Part shown: positions 5,569-43,579 of the stretch, in pieces | How the letters are laid out: each line of letters opens with the position of its first letter | Numbering within the stretch: the stretch's first letter is position 1 | Source of the DNA: an uncultured Bacilli bacterium | Lineage (GTDB): Bacteria > Bacillota_I > Bacilli_A > RF39 > UBA660 | Direction of reading: 5' to 3' | DNA: 64,000 nt | Assembly: GCA_934096815.1 (NCBI GenBank) | Contig: CAKOMY010000002.1 | Coordinates: 9,546 to 73,545, forward strand | Notes under the pieces: generated by a model | What the model saw: the letters and a program-made list of their open reading frames with translations, nothing else | What the model was told of the DNA's origin: nothing | The model's database searches: none | Made by a program: the position numbers and the translations under genes

Positions 5569-6939
5569 ATGATATATGAGTGTGATAAATGTGGGTTTAA
5601 ACATGAAGGAATACTGCCGGATGGATATCATTGTCCTTTGTGTTTATCGGGGTATGATCATTTAATTCCCATTGAATTTGAAAATAAAGTATATAAAAGG
5701 GTAGAAATATCTAATGGAAATGTTGGAATTAGAAGAATAGAGGAAAAATGCATTAATTGTGGTATGTGTTTAAGGACTTGTGAAAAAGTAACTAATTGTT
5801 TAGTTAATACGGCAAATAATGATTATAAAGATTCAAATGATTTATGTTTAGAATGTGGAAATTGTATATTAACTTGTCCTACATCATCATTAATTCCAAA
5901 GTATGATTATCAAGAAGTGCTAAAATATATTGATAACCCTGATTATATTGTAATAGCACTAACTAGTCCTGCAACAAGAGTTGGAATTGGAGATGCTTTT
6001 TTCAAAGAACCTGGTATGTTTTTAGAAGGCAAAATGGTAGCTGCTTTAAAAAAATTAGGGTTTGATTATGTTTTTGATTTAACTTTTGGAGCGGATATTA
6101 CATCAGTAGAGGAAGCACATGAATTAAAAGAAAGATTAGAAAGTAGGGGAAAACCCATGTTTTCTAGTTGTTGTCCTTCTTGGGTAAAATATTGTCATAT
6201 AGTTCATCCTGAGCTAATAGATAATTTATCCACTTGTAAGAGCCCTATTGGTATGGCAAGTACAGTTATAAAAAAATTATTTGCACCTAATGAGTATGAT
6301 AGAGATAAAAAAATAATAATAGTGGCTGTAACGCCTTGCACAAGTAAAAAAAGAGAAATTGTTGGTACAGATACTGATTTTGTTATTACTACAAGTGAGC
6401 TAGCTTTGATGATTAGAGAAAATGGGATTGATTTTAATAAATTAGAAGATGCTGCTTTTGATAGAGTAAAAGGATCATTTTCTGGTACTAATTATGGAAC
6501 TGGTGGAGGAGTTACTAAATCAGTTGTTAGGTGTCTTTATTATGAGATGACTGGTAAAGATTTAAAAGAAAAAGATTATATAATAGAAGATAAAGAATAT
6601 TACAGGTTACTTAAAGTTAAAATTAATTCAAGAATTGTTAGATGTATAATAGTTAGTACAATGTCAAATTTAGAAAAAATACTAAAAAATGATGTTGAGT
6701 TTGATTTTGCTGAGATTATGTATTGTGATGGTGGATGTGTTTCAGGCGGAGGCCAAGTCTTAATGCCTGTTAAAGATAAAGAATTGATTAAACAAAAAAG
6801 AGCAGAAAGCTTGAACAAAAAACATAATGAGATTGAATACTATCCTTATAAAAATGACTTAATAGATGATTTATATAATACTTATTTAAATAATCCGGGA
6901 AGTGCTGATGCTCATAAATATTTACATATTAATCATTAA
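5569..6939 (+). CDS. [FeFe] hydrogenase with 2x[4Fe-4S] ferredoxin-type and N-terminal Cys4 (rubredoxin-like) motifs
   Basis: H-cluster signatures SSCCPSW (L1), TPCTSKKRE (L2), EIMYCDGGCVSGGGQ (L3); CINCGMCLRTC and CLECGNCILTCP ferredoxin motifs; ATG 5569 has RBS AGGTGA, whereas the track TTG start at 5521 does not. Confidence 0.8.
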   Translation: MIYECDKCGFKHEGILPDGYHCPLCLSGYDHLIPIEFENKVYKRVEISNGNVGIRRIEEKCINCGMCLRTCEKVTNCLVNTANNDYKDSNDLCLECGNCILTCPTSSLIPKYDYQEVLKYIDNPDYIVIALTSPATRVGIGDAFFKEPGMFLEGKMVAALKKLGFDYVFDLTFGADITSVEEAHELKERLESRGKPMFSSCCPSWVKYCHIVHPELIDNLSTCKSPIGMASTVIKKLFAPNEYDRDKKIIIVAVTPCTSKKREIVGTDTDFVITTSELALMIRENGIDFNKLEDAAFDRVKGSFSGTNYGTGGGVTKSVVRCLYYEMTGKDLKEKDYIIEDKEYYRLLKVKINSRIVRCIIVSTMSNLEKILKNDVEFDFAEIMYCDGGCVSGGGQVLMPVKDKELIKQKRAESLNKKHNEIEYYPYKNDLIDDLYNTYLNNPGSADAHKYLHINH

Positions 6940-7021
6940 AACTTAAATATAATTATGAAAAAAATTAGTTGATATACTAATTTTTTTGTGGTAGTATTTT
7001 ATTAGAATAGCGAGGAATTTT

Positions 7022-7306
7022 ATGAATACTAATATTGAATTAAAAAGAGTAAATGGAGAAATAATAAAAGCAGAATTAATTAGTTATTTTGAGTATGTTC
7101 CAAATAATAAAAAATATGTATTTTATACTTTAAATGAAAAAGTAGAAAATGATTTAGTAAAAATGTATGTATCTGAAGTATCAAATGGGAACGCTTTATC
7201 AGATAATATGACAAATGATGAATGGAATAATATAAAGGGAATTATGAAATCCATTCTTACAGCAAATAATAATGAAAATATTAAATACTTAAATTGGGAG
7301 GCTTAA
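7022..7306 (+). CDS. DUF1292-like small acidic protein
   Basis: 94 aa; pattern I-x-L-x-x-x-G-E...YFEY...KKYVFY typical of the DUF1292 family. Confidence 0.4.
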   Translation: MNTNIELKRVNGEIIKAELISYFEYVPNNKKYVFYTLNEKVENDLVKMYVSEVSNGNALSDNMTNDEWNNIKGIMKSILTANNNENIKYLNWEA

Positions 7307-9642: not shown

Positions 9643-9670
9643 TTGACGGGGGGGCTTTTAAAGGTATAAT
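9643..9670 (+). promoter_or_regulatory. Consensus sigma-A-type promoter with G7 tract (paralog family copy 1)
   Basis: TTGACG (9643-9648), 16-nt spacer beginning with the G run, TATAAT (9665-9670), then AAGGTGA RBS and ATG 9695; about 60 bp are near-identical to the segments upstream of 23295, 24898 and 26839. Confidence 0.55.
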
Positions 9671-9694: not shown

Positions 9695-11029
9695 ATGAAT
9701 AATAAAGAAGAACAATTAAAAGTGTATGTAATGATAGGAACAATAATAATGCTCCTAGTGATATTTTCAGGGATAACATATGCTTTTTTTAGTGCGAGCA
9801 ATAATAAAGGAAGTACGTCTTTAATATCAGCAATAAGTGGTAAAATGACAATAAATTATGCCGATGGCAAAAGTGATTTATTAGTATCAAATGATATACA
9901 ACCTAGTGATGCAATATTAGTTAATAAGACATTTACTTTAACAGGTACAAATACAACTAGTGGACTTGCCATGCCATATAAAGTAGGACTAAAATATACA
10001 TCAACATTTAGTGATGGACAAATTCATTATTATATAAAAGAAATGAATAGACCAGATAGTTCTAAAGTAACAGTAGAATATACAGGAACAACTAATCAAA
10101 CAGTACAAGGATATAGTTCGTATATAGGATATTCTCATGGAATTTTAAAAAACGGAAATAATTATACTGAAATGGTAACAGGAGAGTTTCCAGTGAACAC
10201 GTCAAATCAAACAATCACATTTAATTTAATTCTTCAATTTCCTGATACCGGAAAAAATCAAGATAGCGAAAAAGGAAAAGAAATAGGTGGAAGGGTTGTC
10301 GTTAATTATGAACAACCAAAAGCAACCACATTTGCCGAAGATTCATGGAGTACAATAGCAGCCGTGGTTAAAGATGGACAGTTAAATGCTTATTCAGTTG
10401 GAGATGAAAAAGAAGTAGTGCTAAGCGATGGAAAAAGTTATACAGTGCGTGTTGCTAATAATACAACACCTGAAGAGTGTAAAGGACCTGATTTTTCACA
10501 GACAGCCTGTGGATTTGTAGTTGAATTTGTTGATATAGTAGATCAAAGAACAATGAATACTACGGGCACCAATGTAGGCGGTTGGCCAGCAACAGCAATG
10601 AGAATATATACAAAAGGAGAATTCTTAAATAAATTACCAGCAGAATTAAGAAATGTAATAATTGAAACAAAAGTAATATCTGGTCATGGAAGTACATCAG
10701 GAGAAGCTAACTTTATTTCAACAGATAAAATATATTTACTAAGTGCGCATGAAGTATGGGAAGATGGTATAAGTAATCCGGTATCTAGTAGAGATGCTGC
10801 GTATAAAAATACAAGACAATTAGATTATTATGCAAATCTAAAAGTAACCACCAGTAACTATTCAGGTGCTATAAAGAAAAATGTTAATGGTTCGAATTCC
10901 AATTGGTGGCTTCGCTCGGGCAGTTCTGGTAGTAAAAATTATTTTCTAATTGTCAAAAATGATGGAGACTGGACTAATTTTGATGCTAGGTATGCCAGTG
11001 GCTTTGCTCCAGCGTTCCGTATTGGGTAA
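9695..11029 (+). CDS. Secreted protein, paralog family member 1 (TasA/camelysin-like SipW-cognate-type N-terminal signal region, conserved N-domain, distinct C-terminal domain)
   Basis: N-terminus MNNKEEQLKVYVMIGTIIMLLVIFSGITYAFFSASNNKGSTS is near-identical (also at DNA level) to the ORFs at 23295/24898; C-terminal domain ends ...WWLRSGSSGS...GFAPAFRIG. Confidence 0.6.
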   Translation: MNNKEEQLKVYVMIGTIIMLLVIFSGITYAFFSASNNKGSTSLISAISGKMTINYADGKSDLLVSNDIQPSDAILVNKTFTLTGTNTTSGLAMPYKVGLKYTSTFSDGQIHYYIKEMNRPDSSKVTVEYTGTTNQTVQGYSSYIGYSHGILKNGNNYTEMVTGEFPVNTSNQTITFNLILQFPDTGKNQDSEKGKEIGGRVVVNYEQPKATTFAEDSWSTIAAVVKDGQLNAYSVGDEKEVVLSDGKSYTVRVANNTTPEECKGPDFSQTACGFVVEFVDIVDQRTMNTTGTNVGGWPATAMRIYTKGEFLNKLPAELRNVIIETKVISGHGSTSGEANFISTDKIYLLSAHEVWEDGISNPVSSRDAAYKNTRQLDYYANLKVTTSNYSGAIKKNVNGSNSNWWLRSGSSGSKNYFLIVKNDGDWTNFDARYASGFAPAFRIG

Positions 11030-15290: not shown

Positions 15291-17240
15291 ATGAAATATC
15301 AAAATAAAAATAATCAAATTTTTATTAAATTAAAGTCTAAATTAAGTAGATATTATGATGAAATTCGTTTAATACCAATGAGTAAGGAATATTATTTCGA
15401 TTATGTAACTGAATTGATTAGTAGATGTAGTTGTGAAAATGAAGAAGAAGTATTTAATTTGATAAAAGATCAAACTATAGAGTTAATTTTAAATAGTGAT
15501 AATTGTTTTGAATTTATAAATGGATATATTAATGATAATTTTTCTATAAATAGTGATATTTTAGATTTTTTTAACAAGTTAAATAATTTATTGTTGAAAT
15601 GTAAAAAATTAATAGATTTGGATTTTTATATTGAATTACTAAATAAAAATAAGTTATTGTATTCTATAACTGAATTATATTTTAAGAAGCGTGAGGAACA
15701 AATTATTGGAAGTAATCTTTGGGATTTATTAGATTGTTATGTATTAGTTTATTGTTTACAAGCATATTTAATAATAAATAATATTGAACTTAAGGAAGAA
15801 ATAATTGATTTTGATTACGAATTTGATTATGATTATAAAACTGATTCTTTAACGCAATATTTAAATGAAATAAAACAATATAAAGTTTTAGATGCTCATG
15901 AAGAAAGAAAAATTATTATTGCTACTCAATGTGGTAATATAGAAGCACGTGATTTATTTATAAAATGTAATTTAAGATTAGTAGCAAGTATAGTTCTTAA
16001 AAATTATAATAATAAAGGTATATCAATTTTGGATTTAATTCAAGAAGGAAATATTGGCATGATGCGAGCACTTGATAAATTTAATGTTAATGCTGGATAT
16101 AAATTTTCAACTTATGCTTATCCATGGATTAAACAATATATTGAAAGATATATTGAAAGAAATGGAAGAAATATAAGAATTTCAAGTAATTTTATATTAA
16201 AAATCAATAAATATAAGACTGTATATAGTGAATTAGAAATTAAATTAGGTAGAAAACCTACTAGAAAAGAAATAAGTGTCTTTGCTGGTTTATCAGAAAG
16301 TGATATAGAATTAATTGAAAAAAATTTAAGTGATGTTCTTAGTTTGGATGCGAAATGTGATAATAATGAAGATTTTAAAATATCTGATTCAATAGTAGAT
16401 CCTAGTCCATTATTTGAAGAAGAATATATAGAACAAGAACAAATTAAAATTTTAATGGACAGTTTTTCGAAAGCTAAATTATCTGATAGAGAAGTTGAAA
16501 TATTAAAATGTAGAAATGGCTTTTATGGCAATATTATGTCTTATGAAAAAATTGGAAAAAAATATAATATTAGTAAAGAAAGAGTAAGAAAAATTGAAAT
16601 TGCTACAGTTAAAAAGATAAAAGAATATTTAGAAAAAACTGGAGTTCTTTCAGAAAAAATAAATGTTGATAATATAAATTCAAAACTTATATATGACTAT
16701 TTTAAAGATTATTCTAGGGAACAGATAAATTATGCAATAAAATTTTTGAACGAAGGATATAAAAAGTTAATTTATCTTCATTTAGGAAAAAATTTAAATA
16801 AATTATATGCTTCAAGGTTAAATAGTGAACAAATAAAAATGTTTGATGATTATGTTTTGATAAGAATTTTTAATATTTTATTAATGATATTTGGAGATAG
16901 AAATAGTGATTATAAAAAAGAATTGAATAAAAAAACGTTTGATATAATGCTGTGTTTATTAGAAATGTATCCTTTTACAATAATAAAAGAAAATATATCT
17001 TTAGATGTGTTGATCACGGGGTTATTAAAATTAGGGTATGTTAATGGAGATACTTACAGTGATGAAGTAATTGCTAAATTTTTTAATACATCTGTAGAAA
17101 ATATTACCAAATATTTTAGGGATTTTTTAAGGCTTACTAAAAGTGATCCTTATATTAATAGTATAGTAAAAGAAAAAGAATTTTATTTAAAGTTAGCAAA
17201 CCTAACATATATGGCTAAGATTAATAAAAAGATAAAGTAG
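15291..17240 (+). CDS. Atypical 649-aa sigma-70 family protein (regions 1.2-4 flanked by about 175-aa N-terminal and about 200-aa C-terminal extensions)
   Basis: RpoD-like core: FIKCNLRLVASIV (2.1), DLIQEGNIGMMRALDKF (2.2), YKFSTYAYPWIKQYI (2.3/2.4), region 4 HTH LSDREVEILKCRNGF...ISKERVRKIEIATVKKIKE. Confidence 0.6.
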   Translation: MKYQNKNNQIFIKLKSKLSRYYDEIRLIPMSKEYYFDYVTELISRCSCENEEEVFNLIKDQTIELILNSDNCFEFINGYINDNFSINSDILDFFNKLNNLLLKCKKLIDLDFYIELLNKNKLLYSITELYFKKREEQIIGSNLWDLLDCYVLVYCLQAYLIINNIELKEEIIDFDYEFDYDYKTDSLTQYLNEIKQYKVLDAHEERKIIIATQCGNIEARDLFIKCNLRLVASIVLKNYNNKGISILDLIQEGNIGMMRALDKFNVNAGYKFSTYAYPWIKQYIERYIERNGRNIRISSNFILKINKYKTVYSELEIKLGRKPTRKEISVFAGLSESDIELIEKNLSDVLSLDAKCDNNEDFKISDSIVDPSPLFEEEYIEQEQIKILMDSFSKAKLSDREVEILKCRNGFYGNIMSYEKIGKKYNISKERVRKIEIATVKKIKEYLEKTGVLSEKINVDNINSKLIYDYFKDYSREQINYAIKFLNEGYKKLIYLHLGKNLNKLYASRLNSEQIKMFDDYVLIRIFNILLMIFGDRNSDYKKELNKKTFDIMLCLLEMYPFTIIKENISLDVLITGLLKLGYVNGDTYSDEVIAKFFNTSVENITKYFRDFLRLTKSDPYINSIVKEKEFYLKLANLTYMAKINKKIK

Positions 17241-17248
17241 GTGTTAGT

Positions 17249-19198
17249 ATGAATAATGATAATATATATGAAATTATAATAGAATGGTTAGAATCTTTAT
17301 ATAGTGAGATACCATATATTTCGAAAAATTTATCCGATTATTTGGAATATGTGAAAGAAAAATTAAAAGATGAAAAATTAAATATTGATAGTTTAAAAAT
17401 TGAATTAAAAGATAAGATTATAATAGATATATTAAAAGGATATAACTATTTAGAGTTTTTGAATTTTTATATAAATCATAATTTTAAGGAAACTAATAAA
17501 ATAGAAGAAATAATAGATTATTTTTATGAATTAAACAGGTTAATAGAAGATTCTGGAAGAATAATGTTAATGGATGATTATTTTTATTTATTAAAAAATA
17601 ATAAAATTCTATTAAAATTACTTGAAGTTGTATATAATAGGTACGATAAATTTATAAAAAATAATAGATTTTCGGAGGTTAATAGTAATTCTTTATTAAA
17701 AGCAATTATGCAGGCTTATTGTGATTTAAATAATATTGAAATAGAAGATAGATTTGATAAATTAGAAGATTATTATAGTGATGATAGTTTAGCACAGTAT
17801 ATTTTTGAAATTAGAAGATATCCATTGTTAAATAAAGAAGAAGAAAGAATGTTAATTCTTGAAATAAATAAGGGTAATCAAGATGCTAAAGATTTCTTTA
17901 TAAAATGTAATTTAAGATTAGTTGTATCTGTGGTAATGAGAGAATTTTATAGTTGTTCAATATCTAAATTAGATTTAATTCAAGAAGGAAATTTAGGATT
18001 AATGAGAGCTGTTGAAAAATATAATATTTTAAGTGAGAATAAGTTTTCTAGTTATGCTTACTATTGGATTGAATCCTTTATAACTAGGGCTATAAATAAT
18101 CAATGTCGTACTATTCGCGTTTCTGTTGATTTTCATTATAAAATAAATAAGTATAAAAAGATTTATGAATTATTATTCAACAAATATGGTAGAATTCCAA
18201 CAATGCAAGAAATGATAGAAGCAACAGGAATGAATGAGGAAACTATAAATCTTATTCGAAGTAATCTTATTGGTGTAGTAAGTTATGATTTAGAAGTTAC
18301 CAATGATACTACAGATAAAATATTAGATTTTGTAGAAGATTCAGATGCGAATATTGAAGCAAATTTTCTAATAAAACAGAAGAAAGAAATTTTTAGACAA
18401 TTGTTTAAGAGTAATTATTTAAGCGAAAGAGAAAAGAAAATTTTAATTGATAGGTTTGGTTTTAATGGAGATATTAAATCTCTTGAAGAAATTGGTGCTG
18501 AAATGAAAATAACTAGAGAAAGAGTAAGACAACTTGAGGAAAAAGCAAAAAGAAAAGCATTTAATTTTATCAAAAAACATTATAGAAAAATAATTGAAGT
18601 ACCAAATGAATATCAAAATGGTTTAGATAAAAACTCTGATTTGGTTCAAAAACCATTATATTCTTCATTACCATATCCTTTTGAACAAGTTGATAATGTA
18701 ATATCATTATTGGATAAAAAAGAGCGTGATTATGTAGAATTAAAATATGGAACGGACTTAAGTAAAGCTTATGAATCTAAATTATCAAAATATGAGACTA
18801 AACGTTTTTATAAATTAGTTTTACCAAAAATAAAATTACTTCTAGAACAATTAAATGAAAGTCAACCTGTTTCTGAATTTGATACAATTCAAAGTGATAC
18901 ATGTAATAGACTTTTGAAGTTAATTAGACTGGATTCAATTAATGAATTAATAAATTTATATTCATATAACACTATTGTTATTGGTTTTCTTAAAACTGGT
19001 TATGTTGATTTAATTAAATATAATAATTTAGTAATTGCTAATTTTCTTAATATTAGTGAAGAAAATGTGATAAATGATTTTGAAAAGTTTCAAGGATTAT
19101 CAAATAATGATGAGAAATTAATAGATATTTTATCTAAACGAACTAAATATATTAATTTAATTTCAAAAAAAGAAACTACTGAAAAGTTGTCAAAGTAG
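17249..19198 (+). CDS. Atypical 649-aa sigma-70 family protein, tandem paralog of the preceding gene
   Basis: FIKCNLRLVVSVV, DLIQEGNLGLMRAVEKY, FSSYAYYWIESFI, region 4 LSEREKKILIDRFGF...ITRERVRQLEEKAKRKA; same length and architecture as 15291..17240. Confidence 0.6.
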   Translation: MNNDNIYEIIIEWLESLYSEIPYISKNLSDYLEYVKEKLKDEKLNIDSLKIELKDKIIIDILKGYNYLEFLNFYINHNFKETNKIEEIIDYFYELNRLIEDSGRIMLMDDYFYLLKNNKILLKLLEVVYNRYDKFIKNNRFSEVNSNSLLKAIMQAYCDLNNIEIEDRFDKLEDYYSDDSLAQYIFEIRRYPLLNKEEERMLILEINKGNQDAKDFFIKCNLRLVVSVVMREFYSCSISKLDLIQEGNLGLMRAVEKYNILSENKFSSYAYYWIESFITRAINNQCRTIRVSVDFHYKINKYKKIYELLFNKYGRIPTMQEMIEATGMNEETINLIRSNLIGVVSYDLEVTNDTTDKILDFVEDSDANIEANFLIKQKKEIFRQLFKSNYLSEREKKILIDRFGFNGDIKSLEEIGAEMKITRERVRQLEEKAKRKAFNFIKKHYRKIIEVPNEYQNGLDKNSDLVQKPLYSSLPYPFEQVDNVISLLDKKERDYVELKYGTDLSKAYESKLSKYETKRFYKLVLPKIKLLLEQLNESQPVSEFDTIQSDTCNRLLKLIRLDSINELINLYSYNTIVIGFLKTGYVDLIKYNNLVIANFLNISEENVINDFEKFQGLSNNDEKLIDILSKRTKYINLISKKETTEKLSK

Positions 19199-21317: not shown

Positions 21318-22581
21318 ATTAGATAATACAGATGAATCTTTATATTATGATAAGTTAGATTGTGGTTTAGAAATTTATATGGTTCCTAATAATAATATAA
21401 ATAAATTTTATTTAACATTAAATACTAAATTTGGTTCAATAAATACTAAATTCAAATATGATAGTAAAGAATATGATATGCCTAAAGGTATAGCTCATTA
21501 TTTAGAACATTTATCGTTTAATATGGAAGATGAATCTGTGTTTGATCATTATGGTAAGATTGGTTCATCTATTAATGCTTTTACAACTTATGATTTAACA
21601 AGTTATAATGTAATGAGTAATAATAGATTTAAGGAAAATTTAGAGTATTTACTTGAGTATGTTTATACTCCTTATTTTACTAAAGAATTATTTCAAAGTG
21701 AAAAAGGGGTTATAGAAGAAGAAGTCAAAATGTATAAAGATGATCCAGGTATGACTATTGTTAATGGTACTTTAAAAAATTTATTTGTAAATGATGAACG
21801 TAAGTATTTGGTTGGTGGTACTGTTAAAGATGTTAAAAGTATTAAATTAGAAGATGTTATCACTTGTTATAATGCTTATTATAATCCTGAAAATATGTTT
21901 TTAGTTGTAACGGGTAATTTTAATGTTAATGAAGCTTTAGCGATTGTATCGGAAAAAATGAAAATATTAAATTTAAATAAAGATTTTAATGTTAAAAGTA
22001 TTTATCCGAAAGAACCGGAAAAAGTTTATAAAAATGAAGAAACAATTAAAATGAATATTGATAAACCAAAAATTTCTATTGGAATTAAAATACCCAAAAA
22101 TAATTTTAGAAATTTTAAGTTGGATAATTATGTGTTAAAGATATATTTGTCTAGTATTTTATATGCTAATTTTGGTGCAACATCTTTAATATTAGAAGAA
22201 TTACAAAAAGGAAATATTGCTGATGATCTAGATTTTTCTATAATTGAATCTAATGATTATTATATAATATTGTTTATAAGTTCAACATTTTATCCAGAAT
22301 ATTTTAAGGATAGAATTATTGACAAGTTTAATTCTTTAGAAGTAAGCAATGATGATTTACAAAGAATTATTAAAGTTAATATTAGTAATTATACATTATT
22401 GTTTGATTCAGCAGTAGCTGTTAATAATTATATAATTGATGAAGTAATGGATAGTGGAAAGGTTAATTCTGATTTTGTGAATATAATTAGATCACTTGAT
22501 ATCGATACTTGTAATAAAATTTTAAATAAGTTAAAATCTTATGATTATGCAATTTGTAAATTAATGCCAAATGATAAATGA
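21304..22581 (+). CDS. M16 family zinc peptidase
   Basis: GIAHYLEHLSFN contains the inverted zinc-binding HxxEH motif; 4-nt overlap with the preceding paralogous-fold gene. Confidence 0.65.
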   Translation: MKKIKLDNTDESLYYDKLDCGLEIYMVPNNNINKFYLTLNTKFGSINTKFKYDSKEYDMPKGIAHYLEHLSFNMEDESVFDHYGKIGSSINAFTTYDLTSYNVMSNNRFKENLEYLLEYVYTPYFTKELFQSEKGVIEEEVKMYKDDPGMTIVNGTLKNLFVNDERKYLVGGTVKDVKSIKLEDVITCYNAYYNPENMFLVVTGNFNVNEALAIVSEKMKILNLNKDFNVKSIYPKEPEKVYKNEETIKMNIDKPKISIGIKIPKNNFRNFKLDNYVLKIYLSSILYANFGATSLILEELQKGNIADDLDFSIIESNDYYIILFISSTFYPEYFKDRIIDKFNSLEVSNDDLQRIIKVNISNYTLLFDSAVAVNNYIIDEVMDSGKVNSDFVNIIRSLDIDTCNKILNKLKSYDYAICKLMPNDK

Positions 22582-22585
22582 TGAA

Positions 22586-22611
22586 TAGCGAACATAATGT
22601 TTGCTTTTTTA
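22586..22611 (+). terminator. Rho-independent terminator
   Basis: agcgaac-ataat-gtttgct hairpin followed by TTTTTT. Confidence 0.5.
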
Positions 22612-22657
22612 ATATATATATGCTATAATATAGACATATTTAAGGGGAAAAATTAAA

Positions 22658-23149
22658 ATGGAAAATATGATTATAGCATTTGATTATGTTGGAACGGATA
22701 ACAATATACATACTGAGGTATATAGACATTATAAAGAAGAACCATTTATAGTTAGTCCAAGTGTAGAGTTTGCATATATTCCAGCAAAAAGAATATTACA
22801 AAGAAATTTAGCATCAATTGTATCATTTAATGTTTATTATTTTGATAATGAAGGGAAATATATTAAAGAATCTTATTATATTTGTAGTAAAAAAAATAAA
22901 TATAAAAAATTTTTAAATAAAAATTATGAAAATGAAAAAGAAAAATTAGAACAATTGAAATTGAAAATATCTTTATTAAATATTCTTAGTAGAATTAATA
23001 AACATGCAAATGATATTAATGTTTCGTTAAATGAGACAGTCGGAGAATTTATGAACCATTCTCATCTTTGCAAATCAAGAAGTGAATTACTTACTAAATT
23101 GGATGAGTGGATATCACTACAAGAAGAAAGTAAAATTAAAAGAAAATAA
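22658..23149 (+). CDS. Hypothetical protein
   Basis: 163-aa ORF with RBS GGGGAAAAA; no recognised motif. Confidence 0.3.
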   Translation: MENMIIAFDYVGTDNNIHTEVYRHYKEEPFIVSPSVEFAYIPAKRILQRNLASIVSFNVYYFDNEGKYIKESYYICSKKNKYKKFLNKNYENEKEKLEQLKLKISLLNILSRINKHANDINVSLNETVGEFMNHSHLCKSRSELLTKLDEWISLQEESKIKRK

Positions 23150-23241
23150 TTTAATTACCGGCAGGGAAATCAAAACCCACCGGAATTTTTTAATATAAAT
23201 TATCATATATATTATAAATTACAAATAGAACAAAAATTCGC

Positions 23242-23269
23242 TTGACGGGGGGGCTTTTAAAGGTATAAT
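23242..23269 (+). promoter_or_regulatory. Consensus promoter with G7 tract (paralog copy 2)
   Basis: TTGACGGGGGGGCTTTTAAAGGTATAAT, identical to the 9643 and 24846 copies. Confidence 0.55.
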
Positions 23270-23294
23270 TTCACTATGGAATATGGTGATTTAT

Positions 23295-24788
23295 ATGAAT
23301 AAAGAAGAACAAATAAAAGTATATGTAATGATAGGAACAGTAGTGATGCTCTTAGTGATCTTTTCGGGAATAACATATGCTTTTTTTAGTGCCAGTAATA
23401 ATAAAGGAAGTACATCGATAGTAGAGGTAAAAAGTGGTAAAATGACAATAAGTTATGCAAATGGTAAAAGTAGATTGTTAGTATCAAAAGATATTCAACC
23501 AAGTGATAAGATAATAATAGATAAAACTTTTACATTAACAGGAACAAATACAACAAGTGGCTTAGCTATGCCATATAAGATAGGACTAAATTATGTATCT
23601 GAGTTTAGTGATGGACAAATACATTATTATATTAAAAGAACAAACGCCAATAGTAATATAACAAGTAATTTAGTAGGAACAGCAAATCAAACAATACCAG
23701 GAAATACCACTGAAACAGGATATACTACTGGGACACTTAAAAAAGGTAATAGATACTTAGAACTAGCAACAGGAGAATTTAAAGCAAACACAAGTAATCA
23801 AACAATAACATTTAATTTAAAAATCCAATTTCCTGTTACCGGAGTAAGTCAAGATAGTGAAAAAGGAAAAACACTAACTGGTGAAATAGTTGTAAATTAC
23901 GAAGAAACAGCAACTGATACCTTAATGGCTCTTTATGATAAAGAAACAAAGACAAATGAAGTATCAACAAGTGGATTATTTATTGATGATACTAAAGATG
24001 TAAATTTAAGATATACCGGAGCAACACCAAATAACTATGTCGAGTTTAATAATGAGACATGGAGAATAATTGGAATATTTAATGTATTTAATAATGAAAC
24101 TAAAAAAGTTGAAAAAATGATTAAAATAATAAGAAATGAATCTCTTGGATTATATTCTTGGGATACGTCTAATTCTAAAGTGAACGATGGAAAAGGAATT
24201 AATGAATGGAGTCAAGCAAAATTAATGTATGAATTAAATACGGATTATATAGACATTAGTAAAAGTGGAACAACTAAATGGTATAATGGTCCGGAAAATG
24301 CACAAAATGAAATTTATGAATATAGTAAAAACATAAATAGTGATTCGATGGATAAAATAGCAAATGTTAAATGGAATACTGGTGGAACAATATACGGAGT
24401 AAACGTAATTACTTCTTACAATCAAGAACGAGGAACAATTAATGTTGATAATCCGACAGATGGAATTGTTAGAAATAGTTATTGGAATGGTAAAATTGGA
24501 TTATTATATCCAAGTGATTATGGTTATGCATCCTCAAATGATATATGTAGAAGTCAGTTGAGTTCACCTGACTGTAAAAATAATAATTGGATTTTTATAG
24601 GTATGAGTCAATGGACAATAACTCCTTATAAAAATAGTAGTATGAGATCATTTAGTTCATTAGAACATGGTATTATAAATGATACCAATGTAAGCAATCC
24701 AAGTAATGTTCGTCCAACAATTTTTTTAAAAAATCATGTAAAAATAATAAGAGGAGAAGGAACAAATTCTAATCCATATCAAATATAG
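23295..24788 (+). CDS. Secreted protein, paralog family member 2
   Basis: Start moved to the ATG aligned with the other paralogs (MNKEEQIKVYVMIGT...); shares the conserved N-domain; mosaic C-region (middle like copy 4, end like copy 3) ending ...VRPTIFLKNHVKIIRGEGTNSNPYQI. Confidence 0.6.
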   Translation: MNKEEQIKVYVMIGTVVMLLVIFSGITYAFFSASNNKGSTSIVEVKSGKMTISYANGKSRLLVSKDIQPSDKIIIDKTFTLTGTNTTSGLAMPYKIGLNYVSEFSDGQIHYYIKRTNANSNITSNLVGTANQTIPGNTTETGYTTGTLKKGNRYLELATGEFKANTSNQTITFNLKIQFPVTGVSQDSEKGKTLTGEIVVNYEETATDTLMALYDKETKTNEVSTSGLFIDDTKDVNLRYTGATPNNYVEFNNETWRIIGIFNVFNNETKKVEKMIKIIRNESLGLYSWDTSNSKVNDGKGINEWSQAKLMYELNTDYIDISKSGTTKWYNGPENAQNEIYEYSKNINSDSMDKIANVKWNTGGTIYGVNVITSYNQERGTINVDNPTDGIVRNSYWNGKIGLLYPSDYGYASSNDICRSQLSSPDCKNNNWIFIGMSQWTITPYKNSSMRSFSSLEHGIINDTNVSNPSNVRPTIFLKNHVKIIRGEGTNSNPYQI

Positions 24789-24845
24789 TATATATAATAT
24801 AAATTACCATACATATTATAAATTACAAATAGAACAAAAATTCGC

Positions 24846-24873
24846 TTGACGGGGGGGCTTTTAAAGGTATAAT
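24846..24873 (+). promoter_or_regulatory. Consensus promoter with G7 tract (paralog copy 3)
   Basis: TTGACG plus G run, 16 nt, TATAAT; the whole 24786-24897 intergenic region is near-identical to 23180-23294. Confidence 0.55.
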
Positions 24874-24897
24874 TTCACTAGGATAAGGTGATTTTAT

Positions 24898-26457
24898 ATG
24901 AATAATAAAGAAGAACAAATAAAAGTGTATGTAATGATAGGAACAATAATAATGCTCCTAGTGATATTTTCAGGAGTAACATATGCTTTTTTTAGTGCCA
25001 GTAATAATAAAGGAAGTACATCAATAGTAGAAGTAAAAAGTGGAAAAATGACAATAAGTTATGCAGATGGTAAAAGTAGTTTATTAGTATCAAAAGATAT
25101 TCAGCCAAGTAATAAGATAATAATAGATAAAACTTTCACGTTAACAGGAACAAATACAACTAGTGGACTTGCCATGCCATATAAAGTAGGACTAAATTAT
25201 GTATCTGAGTTTAGTGATGGACAAATACATTATTATATTAAAAGAACGAATGCAAATGCAAATATCACAAGCAATTTAATTGGAACTGCAAATCAAACTA
25301 TACCAGGAAATATTTCTGAAACTGGTTATACTTTTGGAACACTTAAAAAAGGTAATAGATACTTAGAACTAGCAACAGGAGAGTTTAAAGCAAGCACAAG
25401 TAATCAAACAATTACATTTAACCTAAAACTACAATTTCCTGATACAGGTATCAATCAAGATAGTGAAAAAGGAAAAACACTAACTGGTGAAATCGTTGTA
25501 AATTATGAATCTGAAACTATTGCTAAAACAATTTCTAAATTAGATAAAGAAAGTAATGGACTTGAAATAGATGATACTGTAGATAAAAATTTAAGATATG
25601 TAGGAGTAAATCCTAGAAACTATATAACATTTAACAACGAAACGTGGAGAATTGTTGGCGTATTTAATAACATTACAACTATAGATGATAATGGAAATGA
25701 AAAACAAGAATCATTAGTAAAAATAATACGAGATGAACGTATAGGAAGCTATTCATGGGATAGTTCATCATCAGATATAAATGATGGTAGTGGAATCAAT
25801 GAATGGAGTCAAGCAGACTTAATGTATGAACTTAACTGTGATGGAACGTCTTCATCAAAATATTGTCGCGAAGATATAGCCGGTGGCTATTTATCAAACA
25901 TTACAAATGGAACAACTAAATGGTATAATACTCAGAATAATATTCAAGGTGCAACTTATTATTATAGTAAAAATGTCAAAAAGGAATATATAAATTATAT
26001 TGCAACTGCTAGATGGAATTTAGGTGGGGCAACATACGGCTCGAGTTCATTAAAATCATATAATGAGGAACGAGGAACTAACCATATAAGTAACCCATCA
26101 GATGGAATCTCAAGAACTAACTTTTGGAAAGGAAAAATTGCTTTATTGTATCCAAGTGATTATGGGTATGCTTCAACAGATTCATTATGTAGAAGTGATA
26201 TGCGTTCACAAACTAGTAATATTTATAATTGTCAAAATAATAATTGGTTATTCAATGGTACATATCAATGGACATTGTCTTCATTTTCTGATAGGGATAA
26301 AGCTATATTTAATTTCACTAATAAAGGGTGGGTAACTAATGTCGATGCATGTGCTAGTAGTAGCGTACGTCCAACTCTATACTTAAAATCTGATATTGTA
26401 ATAGTTGGAGGAACTGGAGAAAAAGGAGATACATATATAATAGATGAAATTAAATAA
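24898..26457 (+). CDS. Secreted protein, paralog family member 3
   Basis: N-terminal 60 codons nearly identical in DNA to the gene at 9695; C-terminal module ends VRPTLYLKSDIVIVGGTGEKGDTYII. Confidence 0.6.
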   Translation: MNNKEEQIKVYVMIGTIIMLLVIFSGVTYAFFSASNNKGSTSIVEVKSGKMTISYADGKSSLLVSKDIQPSNKIIIDKTFTLTGTNTTSGLAMPYKVGLNYVSEFSDGQIHYYIKRTNANANITSNLIGTANQTIPGNISETGYTFGTLKKGNRYLELATGEFKASTSNQTITFNLKLQFPDTGINQDSEKGKTLTGEIVVNYESETIAKTISKLDKESNGLEIDDTVDKNLRYVGVNPRNYITFNNETWRIVGVFNNITTIDDNGNEKQESLVKIIRDERIGSYSWDSSSSDINDGSGINEWSQADLMYELNCDGTSSSKYCREDIAGGYLSNITNGTTKWYNTQNNIQGATYYYSKNVKKEYINYIATARWNLGGATYGSSSLKSYNEERGTNHISNPSDGISRTNFWKGKIALLYPSDYGYASTDSLCRSDMRSQTSNIYNCQNNNWLFNGTYQWTLSSFSDRDKAIFNFTNKGWVTNVDACASSSVRPTLYLKSDIVIVGGTGEKGDTYIIDEIK

Positions 26458-26780
26458 TTTTATCAAAACAAAAAAAGATGATAAATATAGAAAACTTCAA
26501 TAATATATTTGATAAATTCCAAAAATATATTATAAATCATGGTTGGTGACATAAAAAAGGATTAAAATTCATAAAATTTTGTGCTGATTATTCTTGAATT
26601 TAATCGTATCATAAATATGTCGAAAGATAGTAATTTTGAAGGAAGAGAAACAGTTTAGCGACTAAGGAATCTCTTCTTTTATTTTATCTTAATATTCTTT
26701 AAATAATGTGCAATTCATTTTACACTATCTATGGCCCGTCAAGTGTAGTTAAAAAATTTTTAAAGTGAACCTACGTTTGC

Positions 26781-26808
26781 TTGACGGGGGGGTAAATGGC
26801 GATATAAT
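26781..26808 (+). promoter_or_regulatory. Consensus promoter with G7 tract (paralog copy 4, divergent spacer)
   Basis: TTGACGGGGGGGTAAATGGCGATATAAT; -35, G7 and -10 are conserved although the spacer sequence differs. Confidence 0.5.
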
Positions 26809-26838
26809 TTGACTATGATATAGGAAGGATAAAGAAGA

Positions 26839-28398
26839 ATGAATGAACAAAAAGTAAGAACAATTGTGGTTTTATCAATAATAATAATGATGATAGTGTT
26901 ATTTATTGGAATAACTTATTCTTATTTTACTGCTTTAAATAATAAAGGAAGTACATCATTAATATCAGCAACAAGTGGTAAAATGGTAATAAGTTATGCC
27001 GATGGATCTAGTAAATTATTATCAAGTGAAAATATACAGCCAAGTAATAAGATTTTAATAGATAAAACATTCACATTAACTGGAACAAATACAACTAGTG
27101 GCTTAGCCATGCCATATAAAGTAGGCCTAAATTATGTATCTGAGTTTAGTGATGGACAAATACATTATTATATTAAAAGAATGAGTACAAATAGTAATAT
27201 AACAAGCAAATTAGTAGGAACAGCAAATCAAACAATACCAGGAAATACAACTGAAACAGGATATACTACAGGAACACTTAAAAAAGGTAATAGATACTTA
27301 GAACTAGCAACAGGAGAGTTTAAAGCAAATACATCAAATCAAACAATAACATTTAATTTAAAAATCCAATTTCCGGATACCGGAGTAAGTCAAGATAGTG
27401 AAAAAGGAAAAACACTAACTGGTGAAATAGTTGTCAATTACGAAGAATCAGCAACTGATACCTTAATGGCTCTTTATGATAAAGAAACAAAGACAAATGG
27501 AGTATCAACAAGTGGATTATTTATAGATGATACTAAAGATGTAAATTTAAGATATGCAGGAGCAACACCAAATAACTATGTTTATTTTGGAAATGATAAT
27601 GAATTATGGAGAATAGTTGGAATATTTAATGTAACAGATTCAGAAGGTAATACAACAAGAAAACTAAAATTAGTAAGAGATTCAGCATTAGGTGGATACT
27701 CATGGGATGCAACTGGAAATAATAATCATGGATTTAATGATTGGACAGATGCAGATTTAATGAAAGAATTAAATGGAGATTATTTAAATACAACCTTAAC
27801 AGCCAATAAAACAAATTGGTACAATTCATATTGGGATTCTAGCACACAAAAACCAGTATTAAGACAAACAGGAACATTTAACTATACAACTGTCATAAAA
27901 GATAAATATCAAAACATGATAAGCAATAGTGTATGGAACATCGGTGGAAATAGTTATACCGATTCTACACCATATTCTATAAACTTATTAACTCAGTATA
28001 ATCGTGAGAGAGATAAAATAACCTATCAAAATAGTCGTCCTACCACTTGGATAGGTAAGGTTGGACTTATTTATGCAAGTGATTATGGTTATGCATCAAC
28101 TTATGCAGAATGTCATAAAAACTTAAGAGTAGGAGTAACTTATGATAAATCTACTAATAAGTGGGATTATTCTGGACTATGTAAAATAGATAACTGGCTT
28201 GCCAAGAACTCATGGTACTGGACATTGTCGCCTTACTCTGGTGACTCGTATCACGTGTTCTATGTGCATGGGGACGGTGCTGTCAACATCCTCGACGCGT
28301 GTCTTTCCAACAACGTTTTTCCGACAGTTTTCTTGAAATCTGATGTCAAAATAACAAGTGGAACAGGTGAAAAAGGAAGCCCATATATTTTAATTTAA
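26839..28398 (+). CDS. Secreted protein, paralog family member 4
   Basis: Divergent signal region (MNEQKVRTIVVLSIIIMMIVLFIGITYSYFTALNNKGSTS), same conserved N-domain, distinct C-region ending VFPTVFLKSDVKITSGTGEKGSPYILI. Confidence 0.6.
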   Translation: MNEQKVRTIVVLSIIIMMIVLFIGITYSYFTALNNKGSTSLISATSGKMVISYADGSSKLLSSENIQPSNKILIDKTFTLTGTNTTSGLAMPYKVGLNYVSEFSDGQIHYYIKRMSTNSNITSKLVGTANQTIPGNTTETGYTTGTLKKGNRYLELATGEFKANTSNQTITFNLKIQFPDTGVSQDSEKGKTLTGEIVVNYEESATDTLMALYDKETKTNGVSTSGLFIDDTKDVNLRYAGATPNNYVYFGNDNELWRIVGIFNVTDSEGNTTRKLKLVRDSALGGYSWDATGNNNHGFNDWTDADLMKELNGDYLNTTLTANKTNWYNSYWDSSTQKPVLRQTGTFNYTTVIKDKYQNMISNSVWNIGGNSYTDSTPYSINLLTQYNRERDKITYQNSRPTTWIGKVGLIYASDYGYASTYAECHKNLRVGVTYDKSTNKWDYSGLCKIDNWLAKNSWYWTLSPYSGDSYHVFYVHGDGAVNILDACLSNNVFPTVFLKSDVKITSGTGEKGSPYILI

Positions 28399-28401
28399 TA
28401 A

Positions 28402-28440
28402 AAAGGATATTGGAAAATAATAACAATATCCTTTATTTCT
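28402..28440. terminator. Bidirectional rho-independent terminator between convergent genes
   Basis: 10-bp stem aaggatattg/caatatcctt with 11-nt loop, flanked by A and T runs. Confidence 0.55.
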
Positions 28441-28996
28441 TTTTTAGTTTAAACCTATCTAATAATGTTTTTTTCTTTGTGATAATTTCATTTATTCTTA
28501 AGTTTATTAAATCTTCATCAGTTCCAAATACTTTAGCACAAAATTCTGGATTATGAAAATGATTTTCTAATTTAAGTAATTCATCTTTTGGAACTAATAA
28601 ATTTCTTGCCATATATTCCGCAAGTTCATTTCTTTGCATTTTTTCTATTGAACCATAACCTGTATGATAATTTATATTTTTAGAATTTAAATGAAACATA
28701 TAATAAGAAAGTAAATATAAAATTAGATATCTTTTATCTTTTGGTTTAAGATTTGATCTAATAACTATACTTTTATCTTTATTATTAACTCTTATGATTC
28801 CATCAATAAATGTTGGTAAGTTTTCATTTTCATAAACATTAAAATTAAATAGATCAGCAAGTTTTAATACTACAATTCTTTGAATATTAATATCATAATA
28901 TCTGTTTTTATATTCATAATTTTTATATACCTTAAATTCTTTTTTTATTTTATTAATTGTTTCATCTAATTCTTGTTTTGTTAATTCATCAATCAT
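28433..28996 (-). CDS. Degenerate ImmA/IrrE-like (DUF955) protein lacking the HEXXH zinc motif, paralog A
   Basis: Architecture I-x-V-N...R-x-R-[YF] then LLSYYMFH where HEXXH is expected, followed by the ELAEYMARNLLVP motif typical of the family C-terminus. Confidence 0.4.
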   Translation of the reverse strand: MIDELTKQELDETINKIKKEFKVYKNYEYKNRYYDINIQRIVVLKLADLFNFNVYENENLPTFIDGIIRVNNKDKSIVIRSNLKPKDKRYLILYLLSYYMFHLNSKNINYHTGYGSIEKMQRNELAEYMARNLLVPKDELLKLENHFHNPEFCAKVFGTDEDLINLRINEIITKKKTLLDRFKLKKK

Positions 28997-29017
28997 ATAA
29001 TTAATCCTTTCTAATTG

Positions 29018-29397: not shown

Positions 29398-29961
29398 TTA
29401 GTTCTTTATTTTATTTATTAAATTTTTAACAGTATTGTCATTTTTAAGATAATATAACTGTTCACACATAATTTTTAAATTTACACTAAATATTTTAGTA
29501 CATAAAGTTGGATACAAGTAATAATTTTTAATTTTATTTAATTCTTCTTTTGGAACTAAAATATTTCTAGCTATATATTCAGCATTCTTATCTCTGTATT
29601 TAAAATCTTCTTCAGTATCAAATGATTGCAAAAAAATATAATCTTCATTTGCATGTAATAAATAATACGATAATAAATACATAATAATATATCTTTTATT
29701 ACTTAGACTTCTGTGTTTATTAACAATTATTTTTTTATATTCATTATTAGTATATAAAATACCATCATTTAAATCAGGAAGAATATCACTTTCTTCAATT
29801 TCTACATCAAATAAATTTGCAAGTTTAACTGTGTTTACTTTTTTTATTTCAATCTTATTGTGATTAATGTAATATTGATTTGTATCAAATGCAATATCAA
29901 GATTTGTTTTAATTTCATTAATTTTATAATCTAAAATATCTTTATTCACATTTTCATTCAT
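29398..29961 (-). CDS. Degenerate ImmA/IrrE-like (DUF955) protein lacking HEXXH, paralog B
   Basis: 187 aa, same length as 28433..28996; YLLSYYLLHANE in place of HEXXH, then AEYIARNILVP. Confidence 0.4.
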   Translation of the reverse strand: MNENVNKDILDYKINEIKTNLDIAFDTNQYYINHNKIEIKKVNTVKLANLFDVEIEESDILPDLNDGILYTNNEYKKIIVNKHRSLSNKRYIIMYLLSYYLLHANEDYIFLQSFDTEEDFKYRDKNAEYIARNILVPKEELNKIKNYYLYPTLCTKIFSVNLKIMCEQLYYLKNDNTVKNLINKIKN

Positions 29962-41717: not shown

Positions 41718-42962
41718 TTGATAATAGAATTTAGTGTTAAAAACTTTTTATCATTTAAAGAAAGAGTGACATTTAGTATGTTATCAAACTCAAATAAAGG
41801 ATTAGATGATAATTATGTAGAATATAATGATAAAAAAATATTAAAAACATCTGCAATTTATGGAGCAAATGCTTCAGGTAAAACTAATTTATTCCAAATT
41901 TTAGCTAGTGTTATTTATATGTTAAGGAATTCAAATAATTTTAATATGAATTCTAAGCTTCTTATTGCACCATTTAAATTTGATAAAAAAACAATTAATA
42001 AACCAAGTGAATTTGAAATAAAATTTATTGCCGAAAATATTCGTTATGTTTATGGATTTGTAGCAGATTCTAAGAAAATATATGAAGAGTACTTATATTA
42101 TTATCCTAGTGGAAGAGAAACAAAAATTTTTGATAGAACTAATACTAATGAGTATTCTTTTCCTCAAAAAGATGGAAGAATATTAAATGATATTGCATCT
42201 AAAACTGCAGCAAATAAATTTTTTATTGCAACTGCAACCAATTGGAATTATGAGCAAACTAAAGTTCCGTATAAATTTTTAACTGTAGATATTAATACAT
42301 TTAATAATTTAAGTGGTCTTAGAGATACAGCAATAAGAGAATATTTAAAAAATGATAATGAATTAAAAAGTTTTGCTTTAGAATTTTTAAAAAAAGCAGA
42401 TTTTAATATAGTTGATTATAAAGTTTTAGAAACCGATGTTCCTGAAGATGTGTTAGCAACAATACCAGATTATATTAAAGCGGAAATAAATATGAAAGAA
42501 AAACTAAAAGTATTTACAGCTTTTTTTAAACATATTGATTCAGATATTGAATTATCATATGAAGAAGAATCTATGGGAACTCAAATTGTTTTTTGTTTTA
42601 TTCCTTTTATAATGGATGCATTAAATAATAAAAAAATTATTGTAGTAGATGAACTTGATAAAAGTTTACATCCATATTTAGTTGAAATGATTGTTCAAAT
42701 GTTTAATGATCCTAATATAAATAAAAATGGTGCTCAATTAATTTTTAATACTCATGATACTAATTTATTAAAATTAAATATTTTACGAAGAGATCAAATA
42801 TGGTTTACAGAAAAAGATCATAATAATGGAATAAGTGATTTATATCCTTTAAGTGATTTTTCTGTAAGGAAAACAGAAAATATTGAGAGAGGATATATGC
42901 TTGGTAGGTATGGTGCAGTACCATTTATCAAAAATGATTTTAATTTATGGGAAGAAGATTAG
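41718..42962 (+). CDS. AAA_21/AAA_15-type ATPase, AbiLi/RloA-like defence component
   Basis: MIIEFSVKNFLSFKERVTF...GANASGKTNLFQIL (Walker A), IIVVDELDKSLHP (Walker B), QLIFNTHDTNLL (ABC-like H-loop region). Confidence 0.65.
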   Translation: MIIEFSVKNFLSFKERVTFSMLSNSNKGLDDNYVEYNDKKILKTSAIYGANASGKTNLFQILASVIYMLRNSNNFNMNSKLLIAPFKFDKKTINKPSEFEIKFIAENIRYVYGFVADSKKIYEEYLYYYPSGRETKIFDRTNTNEYSFPQKDGRILNDIASKTAANKFFIATATNWNYEQTKVPYKFLTVDINTFNNLSGLRDTAIREYLKNDNELKSFALEFLKKADFNIVDYKVLETDVPEDVLATIPDYIKAEINMKEKLKVFTAFFKHIDSDIELSYEEESMGTQIVFCFIPFIMDALNNKKIIVVDELDKSLHPYLVEMIVQMFNDPNINKNGAQLIFNTHDTNLLKLNILRRDQIWFTEKDHNNGISDLYPLSDFSVRKTENIERGYMLGRYGAVPFIKNDFNLWEED

Positions 42963-43579
42963 AACAAAGTAGAAAAATTAGTAATGATAGAGTTAGAAAA
43001 ATTAGAAAACCAAAAAGTAAAATATTAATAGCTGTAGAAGGAAAAAATAAGACTGAGAAATTATATTTTAATCATTTTGATGATGGCAATAAAAATTATT
43101 CAATCTCATTTGCAAAAGGAAATTATACAGATCCATTAAATTTAGTTAGAATGTTAATTGATGAAATTAAAAGAATTGGTTTAGATTTGTTAGATGAAGA
43201 TAAAGCCTATTGTGTATTTGATGTAGATGTTGACTTTGCAAAAAATAGTTTAATAAATGAAGCAAAAAAACTTGCTGAAAAGAATAATATTAAAATTATA
43301 ACTTCAACTCCTTCTATTGAATTATGGTTCTTACTTCACTATGAATATACTTCATCTAACATGAACAATAAAGAAGTAATTAATAGATTAAGAAAGCATT
43401 ATATCGCTTATGATAAAAATGTTGATATTTATCCCAATATTTATAGTAATATGGGTGATGCAATAACAAATGCAAAAAAGTTAGAAAAATATCAATTAGA
43501 AAATAGTAAGATAATTGGAAATGTTGAAGCTAATCCAAATACAGAAATATATAAAATAGTCTTGGATCTGCTTAACTAA
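42947..43579 (+). CDS. RloB-like (DUF4276, TOPRIM-related) protein, AbiLii-like partner
   Basis: ILIAVEGKNKTEKLYFNHF...CVFDVDVD...PSIELWFLLHY pattern; 16-nt overlap with the ATPase gene. Confidence 0.55.
   Translation: MGRRLEQSRKISNDRVRKIRKPKSKILIAVEGKNKTEKLYFNHFDDGNKNYSISFAKGNYTDPLNLVRMLIDEIKRIGLDLLDEDKAYCVFDVDVDFAKNSLINEAKKLAEKNNIKIITSTPSIELWFLLHYEYTSSNMNNKEVINRLRKHYIAYDKNVDIYPNIYSNMGDAITNAKKLEKYQLENSKIIGNVEANPNTEIYKIVLDLLN

Follow-up and report, generated by a model that had tools for sequence, protein, structure and literature searches.

Poly-G tracts in the promoters of a lectin-like protein family of uncultured gut Bacilli: candidate sites of promoter-spacer phase variation

The stretch of DNA considered here (the window: 64,000 nucleotides (nt) of contig CAKOMY010000002.1, from an uncultured Bacilli bacterium, with a GC content of about 23%) carries four paralogous genes for predicted surface or secreted proteins, each of them preceded by a promoter that contains a run of seven guanines (G7). 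There are four copies of GGGGGGG in the window (at 9648, 23247, 24851 and 26786), all of them on the + strand, against 0.31 expected by chance; none of 100 dinucleotide-preserving shuffles contained four, and the view of a preliminary description of this DNA, that such runs are unexpected, is borne out by these figures. Neither G6 runs nor C runs of five or more were found in the window. All four G7 runs lie within TTGACGGGGGG, in the layout TTGAC-G7-N10-TATAAT, and this layout is found 25-30 nt 5' of a paralogous gene in four cases out of four. The run begins with the final base of the -35 and straddles the junction between hexamer and spacer; the spacer between TTGACG and TATAAT measures 16 nt in the four promoters, the first six bases being G. 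A G/C tract of at least seven between -35 and -10, one of the features by which phase-variable promoters are recognised, is thus present in all four.

Reading of the window sequence confirmed the -35, the G7 run, the 16-nt spacer and the -10 of the preliminary description, along with every coordinate that it gave (Table 1). In a consensus scan of positions 22500-29000, the promoters of paralogs 2-4 were the top three sigma-70-like matches, with 11 of 12 bases. When the four upstream regions are aligned, copies 1-3 are identical from about 20 nt 5' of the -35 through the start codon, while copy 4 has GCTTGAC-G7 and TATAATTT in common with them and matches the other spacer bases at two positions out of ten. 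The alignment therefore agrees with the earlier observation that G7 stands in all four paralog promoters and that copy 4 keeps the -35, the run and the -10 despite a diverged spacer.

A short complementarity was seen downstream of these promoters: TTCAC, right after the -10, can pair with a GTGAA that overlaps the Shine-Dalgarno sequence GGTGA (window 23270-23289 and 24874-24891, and related loci). The pairing amounts to 5 bp and -1.6 kcal/mol, with one covarying pair, in a leader of only about 20 nt. Transcription probably starts downstream of the 5' arm, and a functional RNA structure is improbable here. A known RNA element or leader switch was likewise rejected, as Rfam gave 0 hits at the gathering threshold, the leader hairpin is weak and there is almost no covariation.

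The open reading frames (ORFs) that start at 9695, 23295, 24898 and 26839 are mutually paralogous and encode proteins of 444-519 aa, in agreement with the earlier claim that each G-run promoter precedes a paralog. For paralog 2, an in-frame ATG at 23283 is a less likely start than that at 23295. In an AlphaFold model of paralog 3 (mean predicted local distance difference test score, 66), residues 3-35 form a transmembrane helix and residues 45-201 a confident beta-sandwich, and the C-terminal domain is poorly modelled. A Foldseek comparison of the model with the PDB returned generic beta-sandwich matches only, the immunoglobulin A (IgA) peptidase of Thomasclavelia ramosa being the one exception. 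No fold is named from this model, which is not informative about the promoter. DUF6273, the domain matched at the C-terminus (Table 1), is the N-terminal domain of the T. ramosa peptidase (PMC12402451) and has been described as a C-type-lectin-like domain targeted by diversity-generating retroelements (DGRs) (PMC10743442). A SipW-type signal peptide, hinted at by a GITYAFFSA motif, had no NCBIfam match, and no claim is made for it. We predict that the paralog products are surface or secreted, lectin-like proteins. Their homologues number more than 2,386, nearly all in human-gut metagenome assemblies; the few that are named come from 'Tenericutes' or 'uncultured Bacilli' metagenome-assembled genomes (MAGs). 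More than 15 copies of the DUF6273 family occur in one MAG, and identical copies of the window locus are present in Hadza and other gut assemblies. A hydrophobic helix, a beta-sandwich, DUF6273 and many copies are properties of surface or host-interaction genes, the often multigene class in which phase variation is looked for.

Table 1. Coordinates of the promoters, the paralogous genes and associated features in the window
Feature	Position	Strand	Details
Promoter of paralog 1	9643..9670	+	-35 TTGACG 9643-9648; G7 9648-9654; -10 TATAAT 9665-9670; spacer 16 nt
Paralog 1	9695..11029	+	444 aa; N-terminal hydrophobic helix; C-terminal DUF6273 (E 1.3e-16)
Promoter of paralog 2	23242..23269	+	-35 23242-23247; G7 23247-23253; -10 23264-23269
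Paralog 2	23295..24788	+	497 aa from ATG 23295; GGTGA Shine-Dalgarno 6 nt upstream
Promoter of paralog 3	24846..24873	+	-35 24846-24851; G7 24851-24857; -10 24868-24873
Paralog 3	24898..26457	+	519 aa
CCCGTCAAG	26735..26743	+	matches CTTGACGGG (26780-26788) in inverted orientation; degenerate version of the 17-bp inverted repeat
Promoter of paralog 4	26781..26808	+	-35 26781-26786; G7 26786-26792; -10 26803-26808; remaining spacer TAAATGGCGA unlike copies 1-3
Paralog 4	26839..28398	+	519 aa; weak DUF6273 match
GC-rich VR-like segment	28213..28333	+	GC 0.53; 3' end of paralog 4; homologous to the variable region (VR) of the DGR target in L044

The G-run promoter is not confined to the window. 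A comparative set of 119 loci (cited below by L numbers) was gathered by exact-protein look-ups, by a protein-profile scan of species-representative genomes, and by DNA-pattern scans of metagenome and viral contigs. The metagenome contig scan, of Joint Genome Institute metagenomes, allowed the tract length to vary and yielded only 28 loci, about a third of which are unrelated high-GC chance matches; the viral scan contributed one locus. All tract lengths compared are those of consensus assembly sequences. The arrangement TTGAC-G(n)-~10 nt-TATAAT was found upstream of DUF6273-family genes in at least eight uncultured gut Bacilli MAG species, and likewise before the genes of an unrelated second family, whose proteins of about 470-550 aa have a different hydrophobic N-terminus. 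Within 739 kb made up of the window and related low-GC loci, G/C runs of six or more stand directly after a TTGAC box in 97 cases out of 97. The remaining ten spacer bases diverge across loci: cttttaaagg, taaatggcga, taaaccgaga, tgtttagagg and acactcgcga are all found. Because a pure G run is kept in dozens of copies and in several species of 23% GC while the adjacent spacer bases turn over, we take the tract itself to be under selection. The preliminary description had drawn the same conclusion from copy 4, and it now extends to at least eight species and two families in which the remainder of the spacer has diverged.

Three further observations concern the distribution of these promoters. 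Members of the second family (L025:1005, L037:1031, L067:3643, L070, L074, L078, L084, L086 and L087) have an N-terminus ending in ...KYTLIVTIMLLFISIIGYSLSF, and none was found in the window. At the P0091 locus, between clpP and rimP-nusA-infB, the promoter of a DUF6273-family member is AT-rich and free of G runs in ten contigs out of ten (L095-L104); this member may be a constitutively expressed copy. Finally, TTGAC-G10-N9-TATAAT with an 18-nt spacer occurs in another organism, on a human-gut contig of 42% GC (L081:3350-3383). Downstream of it come a small protein predicted to be secreted and a 758-aa ORF that resembles, by eye, a TonB-dependent receptor; this may be an independent promoter tract.

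Tract length varies. Over 59 distinct flank contexts, giving 60 context-by-length combinations, we counted one G5, ten G6, 42 G7 and seven G8. The tract is always pure and its change in length is mostly uncompensated, leaving a spacer of 15, 16 or 17 nt. The closest comparison involves four contigs from four different samples: L003 is identical to L004, L005 and L006 over 8,537, 7,973 and 3,670 nt, respectively, except that its tract is longer by one G (at L003:4968; G8 vs G7), and a random single indel in 8.5 kb would strike this 8-nt tract with a chance of about 0.1%. Length polymorphism among close strains with unchanged flanks, as expected of a phase-variable tract, is seen in these contigs and in the G5-G8 range as a whole. 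Comparing tract lengths across related strains was a check proposed in the preliminary description, and its outcome goes in the predicted direction, with G5 to G8 among orthologues and paralogues and a G8 in L003. Among 26 extra contigs from same-protein sets, there were no further variants of one G more or less: each of them had G7, no tract or a decayed one.

Where a family promoter has no pure run, it contains scrambled, purine-rich remnants, for instance GATGGTGGG, TAGGGAGGA, GCGAGGAGGG and TAGAGGTGG; no singly interrupted tract was seen among the family promoters compared. These decayed promoters have a spacer of 17 or 18 nt without exception, never of 16. The same spacing prevails among exact TTGACn...TATAAT pairs that lack a G run in these genomes (17 nt in 11, 18 nt in eight and 16 nt in one), so that the 16-nt spacer of G7 stands one or two slips below the local norm. 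The spacing argument of the preliminary description must be amended accordingly: gain or loss of a G does shift the spacer, as it held, but 16 nt is not a usual length here, where promoters use 17-18 nt.

Upstream of the -35, a further element is conserved. The bases just 5' of the hexamer (TGTTCGC) are maintained, and about half of the contexts have a perfect 17-bp inverted repeat: the box AAATGTTCGCTTGACGG is its 3' arm, and the partner, CCGTCAAGCGAACATTT, lies 45-70 nt upstream. Both the -35 hexamer and the tract's first two G's fall within the 3' arm. As RNA, the repeat has a folding energy of -27.3 kcal/mol with a z-score of -6.3 (L016:2898-2954; about 35 other contexts also carry the repeat). 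Within the window, only copy 4 has the repeat, in a degenerate form (Table 1). The repeat could be an insulator against read-through, a palindromic cassette or a regulator site. A divergent promoter behind the inverted -35 box was rejected, the upstream gene being co-oriented in the two loci checked. An inverton was rejected too: the repeat encloses only a 15-40-nt AT-rich loop, with the -35 inside its right arm and the -10 outside, and no recombinase gene was found adjacent to the promoters. Elsewhere in the window, just past an M16 peptidase gene, AGCGAACATAATGTTTGCT and the T run after it resemble a terminator hairpin (22587-22605), which is built of the palindrome GCGAACAT/ATGTTTGC (ATGTT(C/T)GC), as in the box 5' of the -35 of the G-run promoters.

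The family is also linked to a DGR. The sister species CAKOIE has a complete element (L044:2998-7100): a family gene that ends in a VR (4390-4505) is followed by a template repeat (TR; 5038-5134) 500 nt downstream of the VR, then by bAvd (5699-6058) and a reverse transcriptase gene (RT; 6039-7100; RVT_1). Of the 26 adenines of the TR, 17 differ in the VR, and the 75 other positions all agree; the family gene of CAKOIE is thus confirmed as a DGR target. The VR-like segment of paralog 4 differs from the L044 template at 13 of 26 adenine positions and at 8 of 75 others. A DNA search over the full window turned up no TR, and no RT was found in a scan of its annotated ORFs of at least 100 aa, which covered all but about a dozen of them. 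DGR targeting in the sister species fits a contingency role but is no proof for the window locus. Taken together, the hydrophobic helix, the lectin-like domain, the presence of more than 15 copies and DGR targeting make the DUF6273-family genes typical contingency genes.

We propose the following mechanism. Each family gene would form its own transcription unit, served by a near-consensus promoter of the housekeeping-sigma (sigma-A/sigma-70) type, and the poly-G tract, from the last base of the -35 onwards, would set the distance between -35 and -10. Slipped-strand mispairing at replication would add or remove a G, with G6 giving a spacer of 15 nt, G7 of 16 and G8 of 17. As promoters in these genomes usually use 17-18 nt, G7 would most likely be a reduced or resting state; G8 (or G9) would be the strongest form, and G6 or G5 would be off. 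The outcome would be a stochastic, heritable, gene-by-gene tuning of the lectin-like family, that is, transcriptional phase variation. On balance, we lean slightly towards this reading of the G-run promoters as a slippage-driven dial or on/off switch. Pure-or-decayed tracts, common variants of one G more or less, uncompensated changes and contigs that differ by a single indel are what is predicted of a slippage-prone contingency tract; they are less expected of a protein-binding motif, because a motif would tolerate point substitutions better than changes in length. From such sequence features we infer that slippage at the tract is frequent and reversible and that tract length alters transcription. 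The switch put forward in the preliminary description has thus gained ground through the position, purity, conservation and length polymorphism of the tract and its fit with spacing, the switching itself being inferred and G7 remaining dominant.

Several points weigh against phase variation. G7 makes up 42 of the 60 context-by-length combinations; at five loci of the window's closest relatives it was found in about 45 contig instances vs one G8, and strains about 3% diverged retain it at all three loci. The lone G8 could be a homopolymer assembly error. G7 belongs to the shortest class counted as potentially phase-variable, and its rate of mutation may lie under 1e-5 (PMC6321876). Near-consensus hexamers can support activity at a spacing of 16 nt, so that the effect of a slip may be modest. 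In Mycoplasma agalactiae, a T-tract in the vpma promoter is documented without a role in phase variation (PMC2268961). The TTCGC box and the inverted repeat that overlaps the -35 suggest, in addition, constraints unrelated to slippage.

These constraints lead to the most serious alternative, in which the G run is a cis-regulatory element of fixed length. A dedicated regulator (activator or repressor) or a specialised sigma factor would read it together with TTCGC-TTGAC and co-regulate the surface-protein genes as a regulon, and its length variants would be accidents, neutral or mildly deleterious; the TGTTCGCTTGACGGGGGGG box would then be a candidate protein-binding site. We consider this unlikely. 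An extended box, (A/T)TGTTCGCTTGACGG, conserved past the -35 in many species, and the perfect 17-bp repeat of about half of the contexts are what such an element would produce, as are the wide margin by which G7 is the mode and its stability between strains about 3% diverged; against this, some 30% of distinct contexts are off in length, mostly without compensation. Singly substituted runs, expected of a degenerate binding motif, are absent, tracts being either pure or fully decayed, and since the -35 and -10 remain canonically spaced at genes with decayed tracts, a promoter can do without the run. The presence of one cassette before two unrelated families looks regulon-like, and two unusual 649-aa sigma-70 paralogs are encoded in the window (15291-19198), but the hexamers are plain housekeeping consensus and no candidate regulator consistently adjoins the family genes in the loci examined.

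A G run without function, hitch-hiking in a promoter cassette (palindromic and perhaps similar to a miniature inverted-repeat transposable element or a terminator) that spreads with gene 5' ends by duplication or gene conversion, seems to us quite improbable. Copies 1-3 of the window are indeed identical from the promoter into the coding region, a sign of duplication or gene conversion in the recent past, different genes are preceded by the cassette and its inverted repeat, and the GCGAACAT/ATGTTTGC palindrome also makes the terminator-like hairpin at 22587-22605. A neutral G7 should however erode fast at about 23% GC: the decayed copies show such erosion, yet most tracts stay pure across species in which the rest of the spacer has diverged completely, and G runs of six or more are found nowhere else in the 739 kb. 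Hardly credible, lastly, is an artefact of sequencing or assembly as the source of the G runs or of their differences in length. Homopolymers are error-prone, and L068, L069 and L079 have a coverage of 3-5x; only single calls of one G more or less could be errors, however, as G7 is reproduced in dozens of contigs and independent assemblies, made in several projects with several assemblers, show these tracts always in this promoter setting.

Beyond the phase-variation reading, we tentatively envisage a two-tier system, which we regard as possible rather than probable. Most copies would be parked as an archive at G7 and 16 nt, the gain of one G would turn individual copies up, and the DGR would rewrite the ligand-binding tip of some of them, so that a random choice of the gene expressed would be combined with targeted hypermutation of its binding; a portable cassette made of the hairpin, the -35 box and the G run would have been placed before at least two families.

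The surroundings of the four paralogs are those of a chromosome. The window contains the core genes murG, ftsQ, queH and ftsY, two sigma-70 paralogs and M16 peptidases, as well as a sortase pilus cluster and a capsule-type cluster; from the core genes, the GC content of about 23% and the pilus and capsule-type clusters, the organism is a walled, very low-GC member of the Bacilli. A phage or plasmid origin was rejected in view of these core-chromosome surroundings. The sigma-70-family genes lie in tandem (15291-17240 and 17249-19198), and their 649-aa products have regions 1.2, 2, 3 and 4 and are extended by about 180 aa at the N-terminus and about 200 aa at the C-terminus; their NCBIfam matches to RpoD, RpoS and MzaA are all under the curated cut-offs. 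Directly 3' of paralog 4, on the - strand, are two paralogous genes for 187-aa M78 (ImmA/IrrE-like) peptidases (28433-28996 and 29398-29961), and a pair of AAA_21/AbiEii-like and RloB-like genes (41718-43579) adjoins the sortase pilus cluster.

To our knowledge, simple-sequence contingency loci come almost wholly from cultured pathogens: Neisseria, Haemophilus, Campylobacter, Helicobacter and mycoplasmas. If the proposed mechanism holds, a prevalent uncultured lineage of human-gut commensals would phase-vary a very large family of lectin-like surface proteins, beside a DGR, and this would point to strong fluctuating selection on the cell surface from IgA, phage or glycan niches. The signature TTGAC-G(n)-N10-TATAAT can be counted in existing metagenomic reads, which makes the hypothesis testable without cultivation. 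Our literature search found no paper on the promoters of this family, on phase variation by simple sequence repeats in the lineage, or on a DGR combined with a poly-G promoter. The mechanism would be of a well-known type, and the family and the lineage would be new to that type.

Among known systems, DGR-diversified DUF6273 proteins are related through the C-terminal DUF6273 match and through the VR/TR pair, bAvd and RT of the sister species; unlike the mechanism proposed here, a DGR alters protein sequence and not expression, and neither TR nor RT was found in the window. Poly-G/C tracts within or beside core promoters set the spacing, and thereby a graded expression (high, medium or none) of surface proteins, at porA, opc, fetA and nadA of Neisseria meningitidis and at fim2/fim3 of Bordetella. 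Transcriptional phase variation with three levels is described for nadA (PMC5953494). In contrast with the promoters of the window, the Neisseria and Bordetella tracts are usually 9-14 nt long and belong to single-copy genes of Proteobacteria, and the Bordetella tract acts with the activator BvgA. The poly-G/C loci of Campylobacter, as listed in its PhasomeIt phasome, are similar in that G/C homopolymers of AT-rich genomes recur across species at genes for surface structures. However, about 80% of the Campylobacter tracts are intragenic and act by frameshift, with variability shown for lengths of eight or more, whereas here all tracts are in promoters with a mode of seven; tracts of at least seven are the accepted cut-off for candidate phase-variable G/C tracts (PMC6321876). 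Finally, indels in the promoter spacer switch vlp of Mycoplasma hyorhinis, maa2 of M. arthritidis and vmm of M. mycoides (PMC2268961, citing Citti and Wise 1995). The vlp tract differs from ours in being poly-A and of about 17 nt or more, against a poly-G of about 7 nt that abuts the -35 in a walled gut commensal, and vlp encodes lipoproteins for which switching was shown experimentally, where we propose it from sequence for lectin-like proteins. In both cases, a multigene surface family of a low-GC organism has a promoter for each gene, with a homopolymer in the spacer between -35 and -10.

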